Assembly (NCBI GenBank): GCA_964016885.1
Contig: OZ024745.1
Location: 120,280,001-120,344,000, forward strand
Direction: 5' to 3'
Origin: Eledone cirrhosa
Taxonomy: Eukaryota
DNA: 64,000 bases
The position numbers were made by a program, and so were the translations under genes. Each line of letters opens with the position of its first letter. Positions within the stretch are counted from its first letter, which is position 1. The notes beneath the pieces are model-generated. The model was not told the DNA's origin. It made no database searches and saw only the letters and a list, made by a program, of their open reading frames with translations. Shown here one piece after another: positions 4,075 to 62,830 of this stretch.

Positions 4075-4136
4075 GACCGCTCTACAAAATCAGTTCCTGA
4101 TTGTTACTGGAATTCTATAAGAATCCAACACACATA

Positions 4137-4231
4137 ACTTTCGGTAGACAGGGAGAGTAGTGAGTTTTGATAAGTACCAAAAAGTACGAAACAGAGCTGT
4201 CAACTTATCTCCCCCTGTCTGCCGAAAATTT
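4137..4231 (+). ncRNA. Hammerhead ribozyme, U3-A8 core variant (copy 1)
   Basis: agtt-TTGATAA-gtac caaaaa gtac-GAAA-cag ag ctg-TC-aact; extended stem I ttcggtagacaggg/ccctgtctgccgaa. Confidence 0.7.
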
Positions 4232-4475
4232 AAGTAAGCGACAATGTCGCTACTTGAAAACAATAGCGTATTGTCTGCAATTATAACTGATTATTATAAC
4301 TGATTATAACTGATTATTACTGGAAATCTAAGTAATAATCAGTTATATGAATATATCAGTCATATATATATCGCTATCCAGAGCACCAATTCTAATTTTC
4401 AATTTCTGCTTGACAACCGCTCTGTATAATCAGTTCCTGATTATTACTGGAATTCTATAAGAGTCAAACATTCAT

Positions 4476-4572
4476 AATTTTCAGCAAACAGGCAGAGTAG
4501 TTAGCTTTGATAAGCACCAAAAAGTGCGAAACAGAGCTCTGTCAGCTTTATCTCCCCTGTTTGCTGAAAATT
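4476..4572 (+). ncRNA. Hammerhead ribozyme, U3-A8 core variant (copy 2)
   Basis: agct-TTGATAA-gcac caaaaa gtgc-GAAA-cagagctctg-TC-agct; extended stem I aattttcagcaaacagg/cctgtttgctgaaaatt; compensatory changes relative to copy 1. Confidence 0.75.
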
Positions 4573-4707
4573 GAAGTAAATGAGACTGTCACTACTCTAA
4601 AACAATAGCGTAAGGTCTTCGAAATGCTTTGAATTAAGCATACAGTGTATTGCAAAATACACTATATATACATTCATATATATATCGCTATTCCAGAGCA
4701 CCAATTC

Positions 4708-4753
<46 letters not shown>

Positions 4754-5438: not shown

Positions 5439-5768
5439 ATACGATATTAATAAATGGAAACTATATTTATAAAACCATATTTATTTCATTATACATATTT
5501 CAGGGATACCAAATTAAATTATGGTATGCCTTCATCAGACAAAATACAATATATAACAGTTTTACAAATAAGCTTTGACGTACCCTTTTAAAATGCAACC
5601 ATTATTTTTGGAAGCCATCCGGATAGTGAGTTGTTTATATTATTTTAATAAGTCATAGTGTATTTTGTCTGATGAAGGCATACCATAATTTAATTTAGTA
5701 TCCCTGAAATATGTATAATGAAATAAATATGGTTTTATAAATATAGTTTCCATTTATTAATATCGTAT
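5439..5768. repeat. Inverted repeat (arms about 5439-5552 and 5656-5768), one HHR per arm
   Basis: Arms are near-perfect reverse complements. Plus-strand HHR 5663-5723: ttttgt-CTGATGA-aggcatacc..gtatccct-GAAA-tatgta-TA-atgaaa. Mirror copy at 5484-5544 (-). Confidence 0.85.
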
Positions 5769-7564: not shown

Positions 7565-9976
7565 CAATAAAAAACGGATACCCAAATAAAAAATGGTTCA
7601 ACAAATAACGGGAGCCCCCCCCCCCAATAAAAAATGCATCCCCAAATAAAAGACGGATCCCCCCAAATAAGAAACGGAGCCCCCCAATAAAAAAATGGAT
7701 TCCCCCAAATAAAAAACGGATCACCCCCAGATAAAGAGCGGACACCAAATTAAAACGGATCCGCCAAATAAAAAACGGAGACCCCAAATAAAAATAGATC
7801 ACAAAATAAAAAACGGGACCCCTCCCCCCCAAAAAATAAAAAAATGGATCGCCAAATAAAAAACGGATCCCCCCCAAATAAAAAACGGATCCCCCCAAAT
7901 AAAAAACGGATACCCCAAATAAAAAACTAACCCCAAATAAGAAACGGATCCGCCCAAATAAAAATGGATCACAAAATAAAAAACGCGACCCCCCCAAATA
8001 AAAAATGGATCGCCAAATAAAAATCGGAGCCCCCGAAAAAACGGATCCCCCCAAATAAAAAACGAATCCACCCCCAATAAAATATGGATCCCCCAAATAA
8101 AAAAAGGAACCCAATAAAAAAGGTATCCTCCCCAAATAAAAAACGAATGTCCCCAAATTAAAAACAGATCCCCCCCCCCCAAATAAAATCGGAGCTCATC
8201 CCCCATAAAAAAAGGATACCCCCCAATAGAAAATGGATTCCCCAAATAAAAAACGGATCCCCCAAATAAAAAACGGATCCCCCAAATAAAAAATGGACAC
8301 CCAAATAAAAAACGGACCCCTCCAAATAAAAAAATGAATCACCAAATAAAAAAGGGAACCCTCCCCAATAAAAAAGGATACCCCAAATAAAAAAACGGAT
8401 CCACCCATATAAAAAACGGACCCCGCCCAATAAAAATGGACCCCCAAATAACAAACGCATCACCCAAATAAGAAACGGACCCCCAAATAAAAAACGGATC
8501 CCCCCAAATAAAAAAGGAGCCCTCCCCAATAAAAAAGGATACCGCCCCAATATAAAAGGTTCCTCCAAATGAAAAACGGATCCCTCCCAAATATAAAATG
8601 GACCCCCAAATAAAAAACGGCCCCTCCAAATAAAAAATGGATCACAAATAAACCCCCTGCCCACCCTAAACAAAAAACTGAGCCCCCCAATAAAAAATGG
8701 ATCGCCCCAAATAAAAAACGGTTCACCCAAATAAAAAACGGATGCCCCCAAATAAAAAACCGATCTCCCCGAATAAAAAACGGACCCCAAATAAAAAACG
8801 GAAGCCCCCCAAATAAAAAACGGACCCCACCCAATAAAAAAAGGACCCCCAAATGAAAAACGAATCCCCCCAAATATAAAACGGATGCCCCCAAATAAAA
8901 ATCGGACCCCCCTCAAAAAATGGATCCCCCCCAAATAAAAATGGGATCCCCAAATAAAAACGGATCCGCCCCGAATAAAAAACGGACCCAGCCCCCAATA
9001 AAAAACGCACCCCCAAATAAAAAACGGATCTCCCCCAAATGAAAAACGGACCCCCATATAAAAGCCGGATGGCCCCAAATAAAAAACGGATCCACCCCCC
9101 AAAAAAAAACCGGATCCCCCAAATAAAAAACGGACCACCAAATAAAAAACGGATCCGCCCAAATAAAAAACGGACCCCCCCCCCCCCCAAATAAAAAACG
9201 ATATCCCTTCCAAATAAAAAATGTATCACCAAATACAAAACGGATCCCTCCGAAATAAAAAACGGAACCCCAATTAAAAAACGGATCCTCCCCAAATAAA
9301 AAACGGATCTCCCCCAAATGAAAAACGGACCCCAAATAAAAAACGGATGCCCCCCCCAATAAAAAGGATCCCCCCCAAATGAAAAACGCATCCGCCAAAT
9401 AAAAAACGGATACCCCAAATAAAAAATGGATCACAAAATAAAAAACGGGACCCCTCCCAAATAAAAATTGGATCCCCAAATAAAAACGGATCCCCTCCAA
9501 ATAAAAACGGATCCCCCCAAATAATAATCTGACCCACCCCAAAAAACGCATCCCCCAAATCAAAAGCGGACCCCCAAATAAAAAACGGATCCCCAAAGAA
9601 AAAACGGATCCCCCAAAATAAAAAAGGATCCCCCCAAATAAAAAACGGATCCCTCCAAATAAAAATCTGACCCACCTCAAAAAACGCATCCCCCAAATCA
9701 AAAACGGACCCCCAAATAAAAAACGGATCCCCAAATAAAAAACGGATCCCCAAATAAAAAACGGATCCCCCCAAATAAAAAAAGGATCCCTCCAAATAAA
9801 AAACGGAGCCCCAAATAAAAACGGATCCTCCCCAAATAAAAAACGGATCTCCCCCAAATGAAAAACGGACCCCCAAATAAAAACCGGATCCCCCCCCCCC
9901 CCCAATAAAAAACAGGCACCCAAATAAAAAACGAATCCCCCAAATAAAAAAAAAACGGATTCCCCCCAAATAAAAA
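7565..9976. repeat. Degenerate 18-21-bp minisatellite, about 2.4 kb, consensus CCCCAAATAAAAAACGGAT
   Basis: Direct observation; variable C-run and A-run lengths; strongly strand-skewed. Confidence 0.95.
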
Positions 9977-31985: not shown

Positions 31986-32095
31986 ATGCTTACAGCACCT
32001 AGGTTTCCCAAGCGGTCACCCATCTAAGTACTAACTAGGCTCGACGTTGCTTAACTTCAGTGATCGGACGAGAACCGTTGTTTTCAGCGTGATAT
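31986..32095 (-). rRNA. 5S rRNA, solitary copy lacking about the first 10 nt (probable pseudogene)
   Basis: Reverse complement atatcacgctgaaaacaacggttctcgtccgatcactgaagttaagcaacgtcgagcctagttagtacttagatgggtgaccgcttgggaaacctaggtgctgtaagc is recognisably eukaryotic 5S (box A agttaagc, box C gatgggtgacc). Confidence 0.9.
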
Positions 32096-32542
32096 ATATA
32101 TATATATATTGTTATGTTTGGGGAAGATCATCTTGTTATAATATTGCCAGAAGTATATAGTAAAACACACTCACTGTTTGGTTTGGGTTGGTTTTCGCTT
32201 CAGTATATTTTAGATTTCTATAATTAATTCAGCTGGCAATCAATGTTTATCATTGATTAACCAACAGTTAAAACTATAGATATAAATATAGTCTCTCAGA
32301 GTTCTTTCGTTACAAACCTGTGACATCATTAGATGTATATTTATATATATATATGTGTGTGGGGGGGGGGGGGGGGGCTTATGTGTATATATGTTTGTGC
32401 GTATGTGTGCATTATTAATTACTAATAGAAAGTGTATTTTGAGTTCACACCTATTTCAACTTCTTATCATGTGACTATGCAAATGCAAGACAGCTTGAAG
32501 AACCTATTATTTGCGAAACTCTGAAGTAAACATTAATAAGTA

Positions 32543-33787: not shown

Positions 33788-33791
<4 letters not shown>

Positions 33792-36700
33792 CGGTTGAGC
33801 ACTCTATTGACTTATATTCATCATGCAGAAACAACATCTGAATATTTCTACAAAGAACATACCCGTACCAAGCAGGAAAACATGCCTAAAACTCCTGATA
33901 CAGAAAACAGACGCGTTGGCGTGCCTTTTATTTCGATAATCAGGAAAAGGCAGACAACAAACAGGATAAATTTGGGTTTAAAACCTATAATAACCCTCCG
34001 AGTAACCCAACATTGCTACCCTTCGAAAATGATGTCTTGGAACTCATACGGAGTATCAAATTTCGGAATAGGAGCAATTCCTTCCAGCAGAACCTGAAGA
34101 ATAGAATTCGTTCTATTAAGGATTCTAACGCCGTGCACGTCCATTCCGACAAAACTGGCAATCTATATCAAGTGGAGCGCAGTTCTTACCATCAACTGCT
34201 ACATAATGATGTAACTAAGGATTACCGTAAAACTAATCGCAGCGTCATTAATGAAATCAACGATGCTGGGTTTAATATCACCTCTGATCTCAACATCCTG
34301 GACCGGACTGAACCTCTGGACCCTATTTCTCGCCACTTTACCCTGAAGGATCACAAATCCAATTTTCCGAAAAAAAACCTCTATTCGGCTTATTAACCCT
34401 ACGAAGTCTGATTTAGGTAGACTTAGTAAAAGGATTCTTGATAGAATTATACCTGAAATTAGTAGTTTGGCCCCTCTTGCACTGTGGAACAATTCTTTCG
34501 CGGTGATTGATTGGTTCAACGGCATATGTAACAAGGAACATTGCCGTTTTATCCAATTCGATATCAATAATTACTACTCCTCCATCACTTTACCACTTCT
34601 CCTTAGAGCTATCAATTTCGCTAAAACATTCACAGTGGTTAAGGATTTCGAAGTTGATATCATCCTCAATGCCCGTAAGTCGGTGATTTATTTCGACGAC
34701 TCTATTTGGATTAAAAAATCTAATAGTACCCCATTCGACGTGAGAATCGGCGCCAACGATTCTGCGGAGGTTACTGATCTTATCGGCCTTTTCCTTCTTT
34801 TCTCTATCAAGGAAGAATTCATTACCCAACGTGGGAGGTGGTTTGTACCGCGATGATGGGCTTTTGACCATGACTAAGTGCGGCCCACGTGCTTGCGACA
34901 GGTTCAGAAAAGAACTTACAGCCTTCTTTAAAGGCTTTAACCTCTCCATACAGGTTGAGACCAACCTCTCGGTCGTTAATTATCTCGACGTTACCCTCAA
35001 TTTATCGAATGGCTTGCATTACCCGTATAGAAAGCCGAATGATACGCTTAATTACATAAGTAAGCATTCTAACCATCCTGCCAGCATAACCAAGACCCTG
35101 GTAAGAAACGTTTCTTTGCGGCTTTCCCGTCTATCTACTAACAAGCATAATTTCAACGACCATTCCACATATTACAATGAAGCTCTTGCTCGGAGTGGAT
35201 TTGTCGATAAGGTAGCATATACAGAGTACGAGAATAGACCTAGAAGAAATAGATCCCGACGCATTATATGGTATAACCCACCATATAATATGGAGGTGGC
35301 CACACCATTAGTTAAGATCTTTCTCTCCCTTATTATGAAACATTTTCCCCCTACACATAAATATAGTAACATTTTTCATAGAAATACTATTAAAATTTCT
35401 TACTCTACGACTCCTAACCTTGCACATAACATCACAGCTTCAATTTAGCTAAACTACCTAGCCGTAGGAACACGTGCAACCCTGTAGTTAGTACTAACTG
35501 TAATTGTAGGAATCGGGTTGACTGCCCCCTATCCGGGAAATGCCTCTCTAGTAACATTGTCTACAAATGTAAGGTTGTAACACCCACATCCCGTAGGGCC
35601 TACATAGGGTTAACCGCCAATAGATTCAAGCAGCGTCTTTACATGCATACCCATTCTTTTCGTTACCCTTTAAGAAGGAATATGAGGTCACTTTCAGCTT
35701 ATATCTGGAGTCTAAAAGACAACCACACGCAATATAAGTTACACTGGGAGATCGTAGCTAAGGCTAGATCGTATAACGGAAATAAAAGACCATGTGACCT
35801 CTGAGCCGCTGAGGCCCTAGAAATACTCTACGCCAAAGACCACATCTTAAACAAAAAATCTGAGGCAATTTCGGCTTGTAAACATAAATTGCACAAAACT
35901 TTCCTGTATTACATCCCCACATTATACCCTAACAAATAGTACGAACTATACGCGGATATTTTACGTCTTGATGTGGTAGCTAAGTATATGTTATGTTTAT
36001 ACTATTACTTATTTGTATAGGTAAGTATATATTACCTGTATGTTTTGTGAAGGTACGTATACTTTCTCGTACGTATATTTGATTGTATATGTTATGGCGT
36101 ATATATTATATATTCTGGTACATATGCTTTTGGTTATGTGTATACGTGAGTTTTGCGTCTGTGTGAGTATGCGAGTTCGTACGTATGTAGGGTGTGTGTA
36201 TATGTGTACTTTGTGTTTTGGTCGACCTACGTCTCCGAACATATGTGTATTTACATGTAGGTATGTGTGTGCGCTTGTTATATACGTATTTATTTATATA
36301 CGTTTATTTAATAATATGTATACACGCACACACACACACATATATATATTTTTTTTTAATATATTTTTATGTGTATTTGGTGTATACATTCGTATGCGTG
36401 CGGGTACAGGCGTTGCGTGGGTTCTGTATGTGCGTGCGGGGTTTTTTTGTGTACGTGCGTGTATTTGTATATCTATGGTGAGTGTTTTCGCGTATGGTTG
36501 TGTATGTACGTTTATGGATGCGTGTACGTATATATTTAATTTCAATTACCTCTGTATTCTATTTACTTTATTCTTAACTCTGAAGCAGAGAATCATTCGG
36601 TTTCCTAGTTAGAATTCTAGTCTACGACTTCAGTTATACCATTTACGTGGTTTTGTATTTGCGTGCATTTGTTCTCCCCGCTCCACATATGACGTATTTT

Positions 36701-37033
36701 CTTTGACTTTTGCGTTCATTGCCAGAGAACGTCTCTATGAACCACCTAATAGAATATTAGTCTACGACTCCTTTTATACCATAAACGTGGTTTTGTCTTT
36801 GCGTGTAATTTTTTTTCACCGCTCCAAATAATGACGTAATATATTCGTTTTTTTTTCGTTCTTTGCCAGGGAACGTTTCCACAAACCAAAGTATCGTCTT
36901 CCTGTCTTCCTCCGGTTGCAACGTTTTTTTAAATATTCACTTCTGCGTTCACAGATTGACTTTGTTAGCTTCAGAAGTTCCCGTTAAGGGTGAAACCAGC
37001 GATTCCTTGCTTAAACTTTAATCTGTTATTTTA

Positions 37034-37040
<7 letters not shown>
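33788..37040 (+). mobile_element. Penelope-like retroelement (RT plus C-terminal GIY-YIG; Hydra-clade-like), near complete, frameshifted
   Basis: Consecutive ORF pieces 34013-34396, 34467-34856 (QFDINNYYSSI) and 34831-35448 (GLYRDDGL, NYLDVTL, YRKP, SNHP), then CNC..CPLSGKC-IVYK..YIG..FKQR endonuclease ending at 35939; about 1.1-kb 3' UTR ending in an HHR-like motif; (TA)n on both flanks. Confidence 0.9.
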
Positions 37041-38867: not shown

Positions 38868-39290
38868 TATTAATAAAAGTAATTCCAACTGTCTCTGAAT
38901 TACTCGTTTCTTTACAGTCCTTTAAAAAATTATAATGATATTATAATGAAATAGTATGGTAGAATATTAAATGTTAAATGTTAATTGAACAAGTACTTTC
39001 ATGCTTTCGCAATCTTCAGATTAATACTCAGTGGTGACAGTCAAGTTGGCAATTTTCAAATTGCCAACTTGACTGTCACCACTGAGTATGAACCTGAAGA
39101 TTTCGAAAGCATGAAAGTACTTGTTCAATTAACATTTAACATTTAATATTCTACCATACTATTTCATTATAATATCATTATAATTTTAAAGGACTGTAAA
39201 GAAACGAGTAATTCAGAGACAGTTGGAATTCCTTTTATTAATATAATCTTCTATACACAATCATACACACCCGTGTATATTTATTTATAT
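38868..39290. repeat. Palindrome (arms about 185 bp) made of a PLE 3' terminus with HHR
   Basis: Plus-strand HHR 39089-39127: tgaac-CTGAAGA-tttc gaaa gcat-GAAA-gtac-TT-gttca. The same module occurs at 40295-40520 (+) and 43530-43755 (-). Confidence 0.9.
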
Positions 39291-39293
39291 ATC

Positions 39294-39382
<89 letters not shown>

Positions 39383-39659
39383 GGTGGTGGCTGCCAACTC
39401 GTTTTCGAGTACGGCCACTACTTTATATCCATGTAGGATAACTCCTACCGATGCGCTGAACGAGTGTGACTTTTTAGTCCAGCCAGCGACTTGAAAACTC
39501 TGGTACAAACACTACACTTGTGACAATTATTGTCACATAGTGCTGGGCCCATGGTACCATAACTTTTTGAAAGTTAATGTTTGGCCTAACATTAGTATTA
39601 CGTCTAAGAGGAAATTTAGACAGGATATCAATGTATTGGTCGAGATAGATATTTCTTCC

Positions 39660-40522
39660 TTTACTGCATTAAATGCCCGAATTGTGAAGAACTATATGTC
39701 AGTCAAACTGGAAATGCACTATCGGAACGTGCACGGGTGCAGCGACAACAAATCAGAAATGCAAATGTCCGTCAGATACCCCTGAGTAACCATCTGGCAA
39801 CATGTGGTCAGAGAATATTTATAATATTTCCATTCTACAATCTACACAGCCCAAGTGAAATCAAGAGAAAAATTAAAGAAAAGAATTTTATTGATAAATT
39901 CCAACCCAAGCTAAATGAACAATAATAATGCTTAGGGTATTAGACCTACTATGATTACGCCTACGACCATGTCGGCTACCACCACTAACAACAACAACAA
40001 TAATAAAAATAAAAGTGATGTTGATGTTGATGATTACTGAAGACCTTTTTTAAAAACCCTAGAAAATGCTATTTTCATCATTTCTAAAAATAGCAAAACA
40101 ATTGATGCTCTGGATAGGGTCAAATAGAAGTCGTTAGACTTGCTCAACCAACCGTGACGCCTAAACCAATCAGTTTTAGTAATCTAGTGAAACCACACAC
40201 CGATTGGTCGAAATACAGTTTGCAAAACCTAGCATTCTGTAGCCCCTTTTTACTGTATATAAGGCACAGATTTTAGCCATCTCATTACAGTTGAAAATTG
40301 CAAATTGACTGTCACCACTGAATATGAACCTGAAGATTGCGAAAGCATGAAAGTACTTGTTCAATTAACATTTCACATTTAATATTCTACGATACTATTT
40401 CATTATAATATCATTATAATTTTAAAGGATTGTAAATAAAACGAGTAAATCAGACAAAGTTGGAATTCCTTTTATTAATGTAATCTTCTATACACAATCA
40501 TACACAACCGTGTATATTTATT

Positions 40523-44656: not shown

Positions 44657-44805
<149 letters not shown>

Positions 44806-44899
44806 CTTTTCTGAATCTGAAAACGCGTGTATTTCTTTATCTGAAAACGTGTGTTGAAACCGATATTGTTATGCTTTGGGAGGGTCATGTTGCCAATAA

Positions 44900-47095
44900 G
44901 AAACACATGCACCAGTTGCTTTCACTCTAATTTATTATAAATTAAATTTATAAATTTCCGGTTGGTTGGTTGGTTCCAAAACCGGACGGTTGTTCATATA
45001 TTGTCAAATTTCTTTCGTCACACATTCTGTGACCTCTTCAGTGACTGAGGATTCTTTTCTTTGTTTTGTGCCTCTCCTTTGTTCTGTCCTACGCCATCTT
45101 GTTTTTGTGTGTGTTGTGTGCTTAGTTTGCGCATGTGTTACATCCGGGTGTCTGTGTGTGTTTTTTTATTTGTTTATTTATTTGTTTATTTATTTGTTTA
45201 TTTATATGTTATTGGTTGATTGTTTGTTTTATGTGTGTGTGTGTTTTCATTTTGTCCTTAATTGTAAGTTGTGATGTTGCTATTCCATTCATGTTTTCTA
45301 TTTAATTTTGGTTGGAGTTCATTTATATTTATTGCCTCTGTGATTTGTCTAAACATTGTGTCTTTTCTGTGTGTAGATTCTATTTTTATTTCTATTTTCT
45401 CTAATTTGCCCTTATGTTCTATTTTAGCATGTTAGTGGAGTATTGATGATTCTTTTTTTATCTTGAAGTTCTCGCCAGTGTTCATTTAACGGTTCTCCTA
45501 TACTACGAGCTGTCTCACCTATGTACACTATATTCTTATCTTTACATTGTCCTTCAGTACATCTTATGCTATATACTACATTTCTAGTTTTACACTTAAT
45601 ATGAGGGCTTAGTTTACAGATTATGCATTTCTTACCTATACAGGGAGGTATTTGAAAAGAGTATGTATTGCTAATAAGTGTTTTTATGGAGGTACCTGGT
45701 CTTTCTACTATCTTAATATTAAGTTTATGTTTATCTAGGGCCCTTCTAAATTTGTAAGCTAATTCACCTCTAGGGGTTGTATTGATGAACATTACACTCT
45801 CGTATTTATTGCTATCATACCATGAGTTTATTCTATTAACCTTATTCCTAGTTCTTTCTATTCTATTCCAAAATGTGCCCCTATACAAGGGGCCGGTCCC
45901 ATTTGTATCATTATTTACCATTTTTTCCCATTTGGTTCTGGCTCCTCTATATACCCTGATTTTATCTCTCTGATTGTAACCAGAGAACTGCATACGGTGG
46001 ATGAAGTGTTGTATGTGCCTCTCTAGTTCTTTGGGGTTGCACATGCGGGACACATTTCTCATCACCCGTACCAAATCCGCAATCAGTATGTTGATTTTGG
46101 TGTGATCCGAAACAGCTGAGTTTCGGTGGATCAGATATTTGGAAGTCATGGGTTTGGCATAATGGGAATGGAAGATTTGTTTTTTGTTATTAATTGTTTC
46201 TAACCAGAGCTCTGTGTCTAGTACAGGTAATCGATGGTTGAGTGTTTGCTTGAGTAGTCTATAGTAGCTCTAATACTCTGGTGGATGGAGTTAGCTATTT
46301 TCTGGATGCTTTCCATGGTGTTTTTCTCTAATTCCTGACTGTTCTCTAGTGGGGGTGTTTTTACTACGATGTTTATATCATCAACATAGCGGGAGTACAT
46401 TATCAGGGTTAAGAGGTTGCTGTCTTCTAATTGTTCTTTAAGTTTAAGTTTAAGTTTATTGTCCCACCATACCATGAATAGGTTAGCTATGTCACCTGCA
46501 ATGCTAACACCAATGGCTGCTCCCTCCTCTTGGGCATATGTTTTTCCATTAAATTTGAACATATGTTCCTTAAGGGTTAATTTTATACTGGCCCTCACCG
46601 CATTTGCAATCATTTTCTTTAGTTCATCGTGGTTTTCGGGGGTCCGTATTGCTCTGGTCCACCCGTTCCATCTTTCTGTGTGGGTTTTCTTGGCCATTGA
46701 GGTAATGGTAAGTGGTCTGCCTCTTGCTGGTCTTGTAGGGCACAGGTTGCTAAGGTCATATGTATCTAGATAATCATTACTATAGGTAAGTTTAAGTACG
46801 AGTCCCAGCTCACTGGTATCAATCCCACGGAATTCAACATTGCTCTCACTAATCATTTCTACACATTTCTCCACAGCAAAATGCACGTCAATGGATGGAT
46901 ACATGGACACAACATTATACAGTCTGTTAGGTCCCTAGATCGGTTATTTTCGCTGATTCTGCTGAGAAGGTCTTCCGTGCTGTCACATATATCTAGGGAC
47001 ATTTCAATGATGGGGAGTATGATCAGGGAGAGGATGTAGGAAAGTCTGTAGTTACTAGCAATGTTAGTTCCACAGACTGTTCTGATTTTTTTAAC
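44900..47095 (-). mobile_element. Penelope-like retroelement of a different lineage (possibly Nematis-like), 5'-truncated and frameshifted
   Basis: ORF 46910-46218: SMYPSI, GAAIGVSIAGDIANLFM, YSRYVDDINI. ORF 46149-45424: CIIC..CKTRNVVYSIRC..YIGETARSIGE..NEH (GIY-YIG). HHR in the 3' UTR. Confidence 0.88.
45003..45045 (-). ncRNA. Minimal hammerhead ribozyme in the PLE 3' UTR
   Basis: Reverse complement: gtca-CTGAAGA-ggtcaca gaatg tgtgac-GAAA-gaaa-TT-tgac. Confidence 0.75.
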
Positions 47096-47467: not shown

Positions 47468-49591
47468 AGAAGTGTATCCGAAATGATAAAGGTGAGCTTG
47501 CCCTCACAAGTGCTAAGAAGAAAGATGCGTGGAAGAGCCATTATGATAGATTACTAAATAAGGAGAATGCATGGGAAGAAGAGACCCTACCACAAGTAGA
47601 CCCTATAGAGGGGCCAGCAGTATAAGTCAGCAGCAGCGTAGTAAGTAAGGCAATCAAAGATATGAAGACAGGGAAGGCAACCGGTCCATCGAGTATAGCT
47701 GACAATATGCTGAAGGCGTCTGGGTCGGTACGTCACACCATAACCACACGTATTGTTAACCAGGTAATACTAGAAGGTATCATACCAAAGGATTGGTGCA
47801 GCAGCATCATTGTCAACTGCTACAAAGGCAAAGGTGATGCACTAGATAGAGGAAACTACAGAGGTATAAAGCTGATGGACCAGGTCATGAATGTAACAGA
47901 AAGAGTTATAGCACAGTTGATTAGGGACCGGGTGAAACTAGATGAGATGCAATTTGGGTTTGTGCCAGGGAGAGGCACCACTGATGCCCTCTTCCTTATG
48001 AGGCAGTTACAGGAAAAGTACCTAGCTAAAAGTAAGCCACTCGACCTGGCATTCGTCGATCTCGAGAAAGCCTTTGACAGAGTTCCCCGTGCTACAATCT
48101 GGTGGGCTCTTATAAAACTAGGAGTAGATGAATGGCTTGTGAAAGCTGTACAAGCCATGTATAGGGGAGCAGTCAGCGAAGTTAGGATTAGCAATGAGTA
48201 TAGCGGGGAATTTAGCATACAGGTCGGTGTCCACCAGGGCTCCGTTGTTAGCCCTCTCATGTTCATCATAGTCCTGCAAGCAATAACGGAAGAGTTTAAG
48301 ACCGGATGCCCATGGGAACTCCTATATGCAGATGACCTCGCACTTATAGCTGAATCTATGGTAGAACTAGAGAAGAAATTCCAAACTTGGAAGCAGGGAC
48401 TAGAAAGAAAGGGTCTCAAAGTCAACCTGATAAAGACTAAGGTCCTTGTAAGTAGACGAGAAAACAGAACCCAGATCCCCTCAGGGAAATGGCCTTGCTC
48501 AGTATGTAGGAAAGGTGTAGGTAGGAACTCCATTCTCTGCCCCAAATGCAAACAATGGGTACACAAGAGATGTAGCGGGATCTCAGGAAGCTTAACTAAG
48601 TATGTAGGCTTCACATGTTGCAGCTGTGCTGGGACAGCAAGCAGCAAACAGCCACAGGAAACAAGTACCACAAAACTCTGGGAGGGCTCTATAGAAACAG
48701 TAGATAGCTTCTGCTACCTAGGTGACCGAATTAGCAGCGGAGGTGGGTGTTCGGAAAGTACAATAACTAGGGTAAGAACGGGATGGAAGAAGTTCAGGGA
48801 GCTACTGCCACTGCTAGCTGCAAAAGGCTTTTCCCTCAAAATGAAAGGCAGACTGTATGATGCGTGTATACGAACAGCAATGTTACATGGTAGTGAGACC
48901 TGGGTGCTGTCTGTGGAAGACTTGCGTAGATTAGAAACGAAGCCTGCATGATCCGATGGATGTGTAATAGTAATATACGCGAACGGCAAAGCATAAATGA
49001 ATTGAGAGAGAGACTGAGCATACGATGAATCAAATGCTGCGTGCAGGAGAGGAAGTTGCGTTGGTTTGGACATGTGATGCGTATGAAGGATGACAGCTGC
49101 ATAAAAAGGTGCAGAGCACTAGAAGTCGATGGAAACCGGAGTGGGGAGACCCAAGAAGACCTGGGATGAGGTGATAAAAGCCGACCTTACCCAATTACAC
49201 CTCTCAAAGGCGATGACACACGACCGTGATCTCTGACGTCACGCAGTAATACAGAAGACCCGACCCCCCACGGGTACAAGCCGAAGCTGAAGCATATAAA
49301 CAATATGCCCCCACACCCTCCCACTGCAAAGTGGTCGTGGAGGTGCCACGGCAAAAAAGCACCCAGCCCACACTGTAAAGTGGTTGTGTAGGTGCCACGG
49401 AAAAAGCACCCAGCACTCACTGTAAATGAGGTTGGTGTTAGGAAGGGCATCCAGCTGTAGAAATCAAGCCAGAATCAGTTCCCGTATGAGCAAGACAAGG
49501 TCAGCCGACCGGACACTGCCCACAACAGGACAACCCGTCTAACCCATGCTAGCGTGGAAGAACAGACGTAAAACGGTGATGATGACGATGA

Positions 49592-52763: not shown

Positions 52764-53088
<325 letters not shown>

Positions 53089-53220
53089 TATATATGTGAA
53101 TATAGACATAGAATATTCGAAAATATTCTGTATGTTTATAATAAACATTTTGAAGACCTAATCGCTATAGAATAGAATACGTCACGTATTACAATTAGAT
53201 TCTCGATAAAAGCAAGGGAA

Positions 53221-53263
53221 GTAATCTACGCGTTTCATTCTTGTTAGAAATCATCAGGACTAC
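53221..53263 (-). ncRNA. Hammerhead ribozyme (first of 5 minus-strand copies, 310-bp spacing)
   Basis: Reverse complement: gtagtc-CTGATGA-tttct aaca agaat-GAAA-cgcg-TA-gattac. Confidence 0.85.
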
Positions 53264-54967
53264 ATATCCAGTGCTTTTATCGAGAATGACACAGCTAGAG
53301 ACTTATAGAATACTTAGCTGTGTACAGGAACTGGTTTGAAAGAGCGGTTGCCGGTCCGGCAGAAATTAGAAATTGGAATAAATGCTCTGAAATAGCGATA
53401 TATATGTGAATATAGACATAGAATATTCGAAAATATTCTGTATGTTTATAATAAACATTTTGAAGACCTAATCGCTATAGAATAGAATACGTCACGTATT
53501 ACAATTAGATTCTCGATAAAAGCAAGGGAAGTAATCTACGCGTTTCATTCTTGTTAGAAATCATCAGGACTACATATCCAGTGCTTTTATCGAGAATGAC
53601 ACAGCTAGAGACTTATAGAATACTTAGCTGTGTACAGGAACTGGTTTGAAAGAGCGGTTGCCGGTCCGGCAGAAATTAGAAATTGGAATAAATGCTCTGA
53701 AATAGCGATATATATGTGAATATAGACATAGAATATTCGAAAATATTCTGTATGTTTATAATAAACATTTTGAAGACCTAATCGCTATAGAATAGAATAC
53801 GTCACGTATTACAATTAGATTCTCGATAAAAGCAAGGGAAGTAATCTACGCGTTTCATTCTTGTTAGAAATCATCAGGACTACATATCCAGTGCTTTTAT
53901 CGAGAATGACACAGCTAGAGACTTATAGAATACTTAGCTGTGTACAGGAACTGGTTTGAAAGAGCGGTTGCCGGTCCGGCAGAAATTAGAAATTGGAATA
54001 AATGCTCTGAAATAGCGATATATATGTGAATATAGACATAGAATATTCGAAAATATTCTGTATGTTTATAATAAACATTTTGAAGACCTAATCGCTATAG
54101 AATAGAATACGTCACGTATTACAATTAGATTCTCGATAAAAGCAAGGGAAGTAATCTACGCGTTTCATTCTTGTTAGAAATCATCAGGACTACATATCCA
54201 GTGCTTTTATCGAGAATGACACAGCTAGAGACTTATAGAATACTTAGCTGTGTACAGGAACTGGTTTGAAAGAGCGGTTGCCGGTCCGGCAGAAATTAGA
54301 AATTGGAATAAATGCTCTGAAATAGCGATATATATGTGAATATAGACATAGAATATTCGAAAATATTCTGTATGTTTATAATAAACATTTTGAAGACCTA
54401 ATCGCTATAGAATAGAATACGTCACGTATTACAATTAGATTCTCGATAAAAGCAAGGGAAGTAATCTACGCGTTTCATTCTTGTTAGAAATCATCAGGAC
54501 TACATATCCAGTGCTTTTATCGAGAATGACACAGCTAGAGACTTATAGAATACTTAGCTGTGTACAGGAACTGGTTTGAAAGAGCGGTTGCCGGTCCGGC
54601 AGAAATTAGAAATTGGAATAAATGCTCTGAAATAGCGATATATATGTGAATATAGACATAGAATATTCGAAAATATTCTGTATGTTTATAATAAACATTT
54701 TGAAGACCTAATCGCTATAGAATAGAATACGTCACGTATTACAATTAGATTCTCGATAAAAGCAAGGGAAGTAGGTTTATTATAAACATACAGAATATTT
54801 TCGAATATTCTATGTCTATATTCACATATATATCGCTATTTCAGAGCATTTATTCCAATTTCTAATTTCTGCCGGACCGGCAACCGCTCTTTCAAACCAG
54901 TTCCTGTACACAGCTAAGTATTCTATAAGTCTCTAGCTGTGTCATTCTCGATAAAAGCACTGGATAT

Positions 54968-55010
54968 GTAGTCCTGATGATTTCTAACAAGAATGAAACG
55001 CGTAGATTAC
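54968..55010 (+). ncRNA. Hammerhead ribozyme (first of 8 plus-strand copies; last at 57138-57180)
   Basis: gtagtc-CTGATGA-tttct aaca agaat-GAAA-cgcg-TA-gattac; stem I extended by attctcgataaaagca/tgcttttatcgagaat. Confidence 0.85.
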
Positions 55011-57333
55011 TTCCCTTGCTTTTATCGAGAATCTAATTGTAATACGTGACGTATTCTATTCTATAGCGATTAGGTCTTCAAAATGTTTATTATAAACATA
55101 CAGAATATTTTCGAATATTCTATGTCTATATTCACATATATATCGCTATTTCAGAGCATTTATTCCAATTTCTAATTTCTGCCGGACCGGCAACCGCTCT
55201 TTCAAACCAGTTCCTGTACACAGCTAAGTATTCTATAAGTCTCTAGCTGTGTCATTCTCGATAAAAGCACTGGATATGTAGTCCTGATGATTTCTAACAA
55301 GAATGAAACGCGTAGATTACTTCCCTTGCTTTTATCGAGAATCTAATTGTAATACGTGACGTATTCTATTCTATAGCGATTAGGTCTTCAAAATGTTTAT
55401 TATAAACATACAGAATATTTTCGAATATTCTATGTCTATATTCACATATATATCGCTATTTCAGAGCATTTATTCCAATTTCTAATTTCTGCCGGACCGG
55501 CAACCGCTCTTTCAAACCAGTTCCTGTACACAGCTAAGTATTCTATAAGTCTCTAGCTGTGTCATTCTCGATAAAAGCACTGGATATGTAGTCCTGATGA
55601 TTTCTAACAAGAATGAAACGCGTAGATTACTTCCCTTGCTTTTATCGAGAATCTAATTGTAATACGTGACGTATTCTATTCTATAGCGATTAGGTCTTCA
55701 AAATGTTTATTATAAACATACAGAATATTTTCGAATATTCTATGTCTATATTCACATATATATCGCTATTTCAGAGCATTTATTCCAATTTCTAATTTCT
55801 GCCGGACCGGCAACCGCTCTTTCAAACCAGTTCCTGTACACAGCTAAGTATTCTATAAGTCTCTAGCTGTGTCATTCTCGATAAAAGCACTGGATATGTA
55901 GTCCTGATGATTTCTAACAAGAATGAAACGCGTAGATTACTTCCCTTGCTTTTATCGAGAATCTAATTGTAATACGTGACGTATTCTATTCTATAGCGAT
56001 TAGGTCTTCAAAATGTTTATTATAAACATACAGAATATTTTCGAATATTCTATGTCTATATTCACATATATATCGCTATTTCAGAGCATTTATTCCAATT
56101 TCTAATTTCTGCCGGACCGGCAACCGCTCTTTCAAACCAGTTCCTGTACACAGCTAAGTATTCTATAAGTCTCTAGCTGTGTCATTCTCGATAAAAGCAC
56201 TGGATATGTAGTCCTGATGATTTCTAACAAGAATGAAACGCGTAGATTACTTCCCTTGCTTTTATCGAGAATCTAATTGTAATACGTGACGTATTCTATT
56301 CTACAGCGATTAGGTCTTCAAAATGTTTATTATAAACATACAGAATATTTTCGAATATTCTATGTCTATATTCACATATATATCGCTATTTCAGAGCATT
56401 TATTCCAATTTCTAATTTCTGCCGGACCGGCAACCGCTCTTTCAAACCAGTTCCTGTACACAGCTAAGTATTCTATAAGTCTCTAGCTGTGTCATTCTCG
56501 ATAAAAGCACTGGATATGTAGTCCTGATGATTTCTAACAAGAATGAAACGCGTAGATTACTTCCCTTGCTTTTATCGAGAATCTAATTGTAATACGTGAC
56601 GTATTCTATTCTATAGCGATTAGGTCTTCAAAATGTTTATTATAAACATACAGAATATTTTCGAATATTCTATGTCTATATTCACATATATATCGCTATT
56701 TCAGAGCATTTATTCCAATTTCTAATTTCTGCCGGACCGGCAACCGCTCTTTCAAACCAGTTCCTGTACACAGCTAAGTATTCTATAAGTCTCTAGCTGT
56801 GTCATTCTCGATAAAAGCACTGGATATGTAGTCCTGATGATTTCTAACAAGAATGAAACGCGTAGATTACTTCCCTTGCTTTTATCGAGAATCTAATTGT
56901 AATACGTGACGTATTCTATTCTATAGCGATTAGGTCTTCAAAATGTTTATTATAAACATACAGAATATTTTCGAATATTCTATGTCTATATTCACATATA
57001 TATCGCTATTTCAGAGCATTTATTCCAATTTCTAATTTCTGCCGGACCGGCAACCGCTCTTTCAAACCAGTTCCTGTACACAGCTAAGTATTCTATAAGT
57101 CTCTAGCTGTGTCATTCTCGATAAAAGCACTGGATATGTAGTCCTGATGATTTCTAACAAGAATGAAACGCGTAGATTACTTCCCTTGCTTTTATCGAGA
57201 ATCTAATTGTAACACGTGACGTATTCTATTCTATAGCGATTAGGTCTTCAAAATGTTTATTATAAACATACAGAATATTTTCGAATATTCTATGTCTATA
57301 TTCACATATATATCGCTATTTCAGAGCATTTAT

Positions 57334-57543
<210 letters not shown>

Positions 57544-61346: not shown

Positions 61347-61929
61347 ATTTATTAAAATAACAGATTAAAGTTTAAGCAAAGAATCGCTGCTTTCGCCTTA
61401 ACGGGATCTTCTGAAACTAACAAAGTCAATCTGTGAACGCAGAAGTGAATATTTCAAAAAACGTTGCAACCGGAGGAAGACAGGAAGACGATACTTTGGT
61501 TCGTGGAAACGTTCCCTGGCAAAGAACGGGAAAAACCGAATATAATACGTCATTATTTGGAGCGGTGAAAAACAATTACACGCAAAGACAAAACCACGTT
61601 TATGGTATAAAAGAAGTCGTAGACTAATATTCTATTAGGTGGTTTATAGAGACGTTCTCTGGCAATGAACGTAAAAAACGAAGATAATACGTCATATGTG
61701 AAGCGTGGAGAACAATTGCACGCAAAGAAAAAACCACGTAAATGGTATAACTGAAGTCGTAGACTAAAATTCTAACTAGGAAACCCAATGATTCTCGGCT
61801 TCAGAGTTAAGAATAAAGTAAATAAAATACAGAGGTAATTGAAATTAATTAAATATATACACGCATCCATATACGTACATACACAAGCATACGCGAACAC
61901 ACTCGCCATAGGTATACAAATACACGCAC

Positions 61930-61962
<33 letters not shown>

Positions 61963-62830
61963 CGTGTATACAAATAATTAGATAAACGTATATAAATAAA
62001 TAAATACGTATATAACAAGCGCACACACATACCTACATGTAAATACACATATGTTCGGAGACGTACGTCAACCAAAACACGAAATACACATATACACACA
62101 CCCTACATACGTACGAATCTACATACTCATGCAGACGCAAAACTCACGTATACACATAACCAAAAGCATATGTACCAGAATATATAAAAATATACGCCAT
62201 AACATAAACAATCAAATATACGTACGAGAAAGTATACGTACCTTCACAAAACATACAGGTAATATATACTTACCTATACAAATAAGTAATGGTATAAACA
62301 TAACATATACTTAGCTACCACATCAAGACGTAAAATATCCGCGTATAGATCGTACTATCCGTTAGGGTATAATGTTTGGCTGTAATACAGGAAAGTTTTG
62401 TGCAATTTATGTTTACAAGCCGAAATTGCCTCAGATCTTTTGTTTAAGATGTGGTCTTTGGCGTAGAGTATTACCAGGGCCTCAGCGCCGCAGAGGTCAC
62501 ATGGTCTTTTATTTCCGTTATACGATCTAGCCTTAGCTACGATCTCCCAGTGTAACTTATATTGCGTGTGGTTGTCTTTTAGACTCCAGATATAAGCTGA
62601 AAGTGACGTCATATTCCTTCTTAAAGGGTAAAGAAAAGAATGGGTATGCATGTAAAGACGCTGCTTGAATCTATTAGCGATTAACCCTATGTAGACCCTA
62701 CGGGACGTGGGTGTTTCAACCTTACATTTGTAGACAATGTTACTAGAGAGGCATTTCCCGGATAGGGGGCAGTCACCCCGATTCCTACAATTACAGTTAG
62801 TACTAACTACAGGGTTGCACGTGTTCCTAC
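61347..62830 (-). mobile_element. 5'-truncated copy of the 33.8-37 kb PLE (open GIY-YIG frame plus 3' UTR)
   Basis: [57 protein letters not shown], stop at 62355; (TA)n on both flanks. Confidence 0.92.

Follow-up and report, generated by a model that had tools for sequence, protein, structure and literature searches.

Positions 4075-4713 of the window, by which we mean the whole 64,000-nucleotide stretch of Eledone cirrhosa DNA analysed here, hold two adjacent hammerhead-bearing units that are joined by a scrambled junction and flanked by TA microsatellites, in a host genome that is AT-rich and measures 3.0 Gb. No open reading frame of at least 100 aa is listed within 4075-4712. We read the locus, with a probability of roughly 0.8, as a chimeric insertion of two subfamilies (A and B) of a dispersed, non-coding family of ~320 bp, one bearing a type I hammerhead motif with U3-A8 in its core and likely to be a non-autonomous retrozyme copied by a Penelope-like element (PLE). 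The features are as follows, the last being a sister family that serves as outgroup:

4075..4276, + strand: unit 1, a subfamily-A retrozyme fragment; its 5' end abuts a TA microsatellite and its 3' part is missing
4140..4226, + strand: long hairpin embedding hammerhead 1, distal stem 4140-4152/4214-4226
4161..4207, + strand: type I hammerhead 1; stem I 4161-4166/4202-4207, core UUGAUAA 4167-4173, stem II GUAC/GUAC, GAAA 4188-4191, predicted cut after C4201
4277..4361, no strand assigned: private scrambled snap-back junction of ~85 nt, built partly from B-type upstream pieces
4362..4371, + strand: internal TA site opening the full B unit
4372..4685, + strand: unit 2, a complete subfamily-B retrozyme unit from TA site to TA site, by sequence comparison
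4480..4568, + strand: long hairpin embedding hammerhead 2, by folding
4503..4547, + strand: type I hammerhead 2; core UUGAUAA 4507-4513, stem II GCAC/GUGC, GAAA 4528-4531, 12-nt palindromic helix III 4531-4542, predicted cut after C4543
4686..4713, + strand: Penelope-type 3' tail of ~27 nt lying past the TA site and running into (TA)n; of the family's 69 tail-type ends, 68 abut a microsatellite
53088..57339, two opposed arrays: sister 310-bp retrozyme with a C3-G8 core and the same TA-site and tail ends; 5.4 and 8.3 units, 99-100% identical

Both ends of unit 1 are truncated, which makes it a fragment: its query positions 1-205 are 93-97% identical to 29 other fetched loci, and the 3' part of the family is absent from it. 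Unit 2 is 95-96% identical to 29 other fetched loci. The junction at 4277-4361 contains a 21-nt match to unit B and is left uncovered by the contigs of both runs examined. A unit length of 340 bp, given by the first-pass annotation, does not hold for the family, in which 19 of 27 tandem spacings give a period of 319-321 bp; the 340-bp spacing at this locus comes from unit 1 breaking off at ~4276, with ~85 nt of scrambled snap-back sequence lying beyond it. The same annotation had taken the two units for different variants rather than a local duplication, and indeed they belong to distinct subfamilies. A template switch, or else the insertion of B at the terminus of an A copy, is the likely origin of the A-then-B pair at 4075-4713.

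Both units hold the UUGAUAA core that had been reported for them (4167-4173 and 4507-4513) and retain the GUC cleavage triplet, with predicted cuts after 4201 and 4543. The layout is common to the two motifs: the core leads into a 4-bp stem II closed by the loop CAAAAA, after which come GAAA, a short stem III and GUC. The residues expected of a type I core are in place, namely a Watson-Crick 3-8 pair, G5, A6, A9, G12-A14, A15.1-U16.1 and H17, and the motifs depart from the minimal hammerhead of PLEs (Cercyon type) in having a 4-bp helix II, no inserted base and a helix III of 3-4 bp. The best ribozyme match in Rfam is Hammerhead_HH9 (RF02275), which has a loop II CAAAAA, a 4-bp stem II and a bulged stem I as well; an HH9-like loop II and stem I bulge are present in both units. 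HH9 differs in having C3-G8, and it aligns units 1 and 2 at 24.1 and 23.4 bits (E values of 0.0014 and 0.0024 in a scan of 651 bases), far below its gathering score of 52. A scan of the whole window against Rfam gave no hammerhead among the 150 of 249 matches listed. The embedding hairpins fold at z scores of -7.5 and -7.7. The differences between the units had been described as compensatory, and four pairs are fully so (stem II 10.2-11.2, stem I pair 2 and two distal pairs), but one distal position in unit 1 is a private, one-sided U.G where family copies carry C. Judged from sequence, each unit carries a type I hammerhead with an open-ended stem I and three helices backed by covariation, and self-cleavage is predicted.

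The units belong to a retrozyme-type family that is sister to the 310-bp C3-G8 arrays at 53088-57339, as had been proposed, and that shows the size and layout of non-LTR retrozymes: a non-coding unit within 150-450 bp, one type I hammerhead per unit, and tandem as well as dispersed copies. The arrays at 53088-57339 themselves look young and two-armed, with a palindromic 6-nt helix III and, in this copy, a U.U at the base of stem II. Searched with a core pattern that includes the CAAAAA loop, the genome gave 729 exact matches against 0 for the control; these comprise 715 U3-A8 (by subtraction), 7 U3.G8, 7 C3.A8 and no C3-G8 cores. The warning that a plain CUGANGA search would miss such elements is thus correct for copies with the CAAAAA loop II, for which there is no exact C3-G8 match. 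A second pattern with a 5-nt loop II gave 1,201 matches, of which the 100 listed divide into 91 C3-G8, 3 U3-A8 and 6 mismatched. An upstream anchor matches 1,827 times genome-wide; most of the first 100 of these places, fetched as 70 loci, yielded 81 distinct anchor copies, among which 32 are U3-A8, 29 C3-G8, 6 mismatched and 14 not callable. A shared 3' motif has 21,122 matches, those listed being largely arrays of the 310-bp sister family. Family copies show a median of 95% identity to their nearest sampled neighbour and, by this divergence, are older than the 99-100% identical 310-bp arrays. Eight canonical HH9-like matches, considered as possible family members, were set aside, as they belong to an unrelated element (7 of the 8 examined). 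We found no published description of the ~320-bp family in the main text of mostly open-access papers.

Other hammerheads and repeats came to light alongside this family. The unrelated element behind the eight HH9-like matches (at L121-L123, L128, L129, L133 and L137, for example L123:1501-1600) has a type I hammerhead motif of canonical C3-G8 form, its helix III being long, ~33 nt past the stop of a frameshifted superfamily-1 helicase frame whose Pfam helicase matches are below cut-off; we take this frame to be Helitron/PIF1-like, and it may be unusual for an element resembling a Helitron to end in a hammerhead. Families of minimal-type hammerheads with a long stem II and a palindromic helix III also lie in the window at 5538/5669, 12258/12396, 41724 and 58897/61240, and two of these form close inverted pairs. 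Another frequent element, short and TA-targeting (about 12978, 38223, 49720 and 57606 in the window, and many loci elsewhere), opens with a long hairpin and the GAAA half of a hammerhead; the second core strand was not found. The window also holds a 5S rRNA-like copy at 31987-32105 (-; 84 bits), a reverse transcriptase frame with a PHD-like finger at 47626-48951 (+) and a 20/21-bp GC-skewed minisatellite at 7619-9976.

The covariation of the 3-8 pair was followed in an alignment of 68 distinct rows (67 callable copies and the two window units, with one duplicate collapsed). It is kept in this larger set, with 33 U-A, 29 C-G, 2 U.G and 4 unpaired rows. The named structure is paired in 90.6% of cells across the 68 rows, and 16 of its 30 pairs show two-sided changes, cells not being independent of one another; slid controls are 34-45% paired. 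Shuffling never reached the observed value on four of five measures (0/500), and did so in 183 of 500 trials on the fifth (pair types). Two-sided changes occur in all four stem II pairs and in none of stem III, and stem I is 76.7% paired, its distal pairs being weak in subfamily B. A tree of 85 rows from which the core columns had been removed places one change between C3-G8 and U3-A8. In a second tree, built from 50 full units with the 310-bp family as root, U3-A8 forms a clade (100/99) inside a paraphyletic C3-G8 group; this tree keeps the core columns, has a long outgroup branch (about 0.5) and samples 35 of 96 U3-A8 units. The natural covariation claimed for these elements is thus real at the 3-8 pair, but both trees make it a single evolutionary event and not many independent ones, and we infer that U3-A8 is the derived state.

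After the switch, the U3-A8 clade split into several subfamilies with compensated stems. Within it, a shared second allele is found in none of the 12 core columns and in 22 of 81 other hairpin columns (Fisher p=0.06), a conservation that is consistent with selection for a working ribozyme without proving one. We saw no excess of A>G among private changes of the kind that RNA editing would leave as scars.

The insertions of the family resemble those of PLEs, which are described as forming partial tandems, inverted truncated arms and a one-sided tail of 30-40 bp (PMC8557442, in its accessible text). Arms lie on both strands in 71 of 101 de-duplicated insertions, 35 of 69 double-3' insertions pair a TA-site end with a tail end, and all but one of the 69 tail ends adjoin a microsatellite; the family thus shows partial tandems, an inverted 5'-truncated arm, a tail at one end and microsatellite targets. 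The 310-bp arrays in the window end in the same way. The genome holds several PLE families, including uninterrupted 775-aa frames with RT and GIY-YIG, and direct retrozyme-PLE junctions were found at five loci (L112, L146, L209, L032 and L184), with several PLE families involved. Such junctions could also reflect deletions between neighbouring insertions. No significant match indicative of pLTR homology was found to PLE2 or PLE3 copies. Since the junctions involve several families and PLE2 and PLE3 show no pLTR homology, we name no single PLE partner.

Several observations on individual loci belong here. At L209:958-6456, ~17 tandem B-type units are joined directly to Penelope-family sequence, an array explained either by rolling-circle copying that followed a template switch or by subsequent insertion. 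L112:1489-2038 is a single two-armed insertion in which a Neptune-like PLE 3' UTR arm and a retrozyme arm meet at a 3-nt microhomology joint. Remnants of three PLE families with RT and GIY-YIG-like frames lie in the window at 33788-37034 (+), 39000-40512, 44700-46934 (-) and 61430-62830 (-), two of them carrying minimal hammerheads in the 3' UTR (about 45041, -, and about 40340, +). The start of PLE1 (window 33788) bears a faint likeness, by eye, to the retrozyme tail.

In unit 2, helix III forms a 12-nt palindrome, predicted to pair with a second copy of itself at -20.1 kcal/mol, versus -12.2 kcal/mol for the C3-G8 type. A perfect palindrome is present in 18 of 26 U3-A8 rows and in 1 of 16 C3-G8 rows, and an AGCU loop occurs in 0 of 29 C3-G8 rows; the combination of C3-G8 with the palindrome is absent from these 29. 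One branch saw the origin of both U3-A8 and the palindromic helix III, together with the lengthening of loop II from 5 to 6 nt; in subfamily A, to which unit 1 belongs, helix III has since become shorter and is no longer a perfect palindrome. When folded as circles, natural 321-nt units are highly self-paired (z scores of -6.1 and -3.6, with 60-62% of bases paired). The monomer is predicted to have its core blocked (median P 0.98), the preferred fold of a single hammerhead pairing the core strand with the 5' strand of helix III, and the active fold costs a median of 3.7 kcal/mol, or 4.6-4.7 kcal/mol in window units 1 and 2, all without tertiary contacts. In silico, this cost is 5.5-6.6 kcal/mol for C3-G8 with the palindrome, 3.0-3.6 kcal/mol for U3-A8 with the palindrome and 2.0-2.8 kcal/mol for C3-G8 without it. 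Among natural copies, U3-A8 and C3-G8 do not differ in cost (medians 3.7 and 3.85 kcal/mol, p=0.92), and U3-A8 therefore does not free the monomer overall.

That U3-A8 with the palindrome is cheaper than C3-G8 with the palindrome suggests why the switch was fixed. The palindrome would make the core strand mimic a helix III strand, and U3 would turn a C-G pair of this trap into U.G. We tentatively propose, from nearest-neighbour energies and a single branch, that the switch may have been an epistatic fix, in which the palindrome strengthens dimer pairing while trapping the core and U3 saves ~3 kcal/mol; the outcome would be a monomer-locked, dimer-activated ribozyme that shields its RNA circle by self-pairing. 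We regard this as possible, and as considerably less secure than the assignment of the family itself.

Two lines of inquiry into expression led elsewhere. In run X4, whose kind is unrecorded, the dominant family contig matches a single genomic copy, L295:1390-1690, which lies antisense in what looks like the 3' UTR of a transglutaminase-like transcript with high coverage (a weak Transglut_C match, below cut-off). X4 covers the L295 region evenly and leaves it at an exon border, and its signal therefore behaves like host mRNA; we rejected this contig as retrozyme RNA, and it is uninformative on retrozyme expression. A U6-type promoter was also rejected: the conserved upstream boxes are only loosely like the upstream element of the genome's U6 genes, and they stand 20-21 nt from a TATA-like motif versus 31-33 nt in U6. 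In the U6 gene array on C19, two of the copies examined (L216 and L219) have SINE-like sequence in place of the upstream element.

By analogy with characterised animal retrozymes (PMC7229834, in its accessible text), we envisage that tandem transcripts would self-cleave after GUC, that unit-length RNAs would possibly be circularised by a host ligase, and that a Penelope RT/GIY-YIG protein would reverse-transcribe unit RNAs at TA microsatellites, leaving tandem and inverted arms with a tail at one end. The pairing of the helix III palindrome with a second copy favours cleavage in tandems as a double hammerhead, the most likely form of this putative step. A different history would leave the U3-A8 motif as a dead relic, in a lineage retrotransposed from its Penelope-recognised ends with no need for cleavage. 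The blocked monomer, a clade-wide core conservation that reaches only p=0.06 and the singularity of the switch would all sit well with such a relic; we nevertheless consider it improbable, since a double change restoring a Watson-Crick pair became fixed, later subfamilies made compensated changes in stem II, stem I and the distal stem without any shared second allele appearing in a core column, and mismatched 3-8 states are scattered and amount to ~1% each.

The place of the family as an independent retrozyme has likewise to be weighed against the reading that its copies are fragments, namely solo 3' pLTRs, left by an autonomous PLE of which the full copy lies outside the sample. The end structure is PLE-like, retrozymes resemble pLTRs in Xenopus (10.64898/2026.07.22.740005, in its accessible text), and the three families examined cover part of the genome's PLE diversity. 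Head-to-tail units of 319-321 bp, up to ~17 of them in L209, speak against such fragments, however, as does a flank survey with the library of three PLE families, in which no retrozyme cluster ran sense-wise into a PLE ORF of its own; we judge this reading slightly less probable still than the relic. That the A-B heterodimer is the functional unit or, as the first-pass annotation had suggested checking, the repeating unit is very improbable and largely refuted. A second clean A-then-B pair does exist at L048, and pairing between the helix III strands of A and B is possible (-12.5 kcal/mol), but the 27 tandem pairs include 20 B-B and only 2 A-B pairs (this locus and L048), and the A-B dimer is therefore not the repeat unit; moreover, unit 1 is truncated and joined through a private scrambled segment. 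We thus retain the view of a dispersed retrozyme family, likely mobilised by PLEs, of which this locus is a chimeric insertion.

The U3-A8 core cannot be claimed as new, natural examples having been published, one of them in an animal retroelement. In several natural hammerheads C3-G8 covaries to U3-A8, and such ribozymes are stated to be active in vitro (Perreault et al., 2011, PMC3088659); as presented in the accessible text, those variants are scattered and come without a within-family phylogeny. In Schistosoma mansoni, the Cercyon PLEs contain about 1,300 U3-A8 minimal hammerheads that a standard descriptor misses (Cervera and de la Pena, 2014, PMC4209133); this animal retroelement shows the 3-8 covariation seen here. 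According to the accessible text, the Cercyon ribozymes are minimal, with a long helix II and no helix III, and are tied to PLE pLTRs, whereas the family described here is canonical, with a 4-bp helix II, a 6-nt loop II, a bulged helix I and a real helix III in an ORF-less unit.

In its genomic copies our family resembles the metazoan non-LTR retrozymes (Cervera and de la Pena, 2020, PMC7229834), which are tandem or dispersed non-coding repeats of 150-450 bp with a canonical type I hammerhead, low GC and co-existing PLEs. It differs from the retrozymes in the accessible text of that paper by its U3-A8 core, by the presence of C3-G8 and U3-A8 subfamilies in one family, and by occurring mostly as monomers and short two-armed insertions. 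Self-blocking of the core is predicted in the monomer here, whereas the ribozyme is predicted to be free in most animal circles (PMC7229834, same text); dimer-dependent cleavage is described there for axolotl retrozyme families. A dependence of retrozymes on PLEs was proposed in 2020 and is supported by a 2026 preprint (Li, Clavereau and Pollet, 2026, bioRxiv 10.64898/2026.07.22.740005), with which our family shares the proposed PLE mobilisation and similar unit sizes. In its accessible text, that work deals mostly with vertebrates and shows pLTR homology, whereas none was found here for the PLE families tested. It also reports that one of nine predicted Xenopus retrozyme dimers cleaved in vitro (10.64898/2026.07.22.740005).

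With both the U3-A8 variant and the element class already published, the finding itself is modest. Its value lies in a natural series within one family, from C3-G8 ancestors through a derived U3-A8 clade with later subfamilies to rare mismatched copies. Counts based on CUGANGA miss roughly half of such a family. The series lets one test why a near-invariant catalytic pair changes, and it bears on what keeps animal retrozyme circles from self-cleaving, which PMC7229834 leaves as an open question. If the tentative epistatic account is true, the E. cirrhosa family would offer a natural, testable fitness path through a catalytic core.
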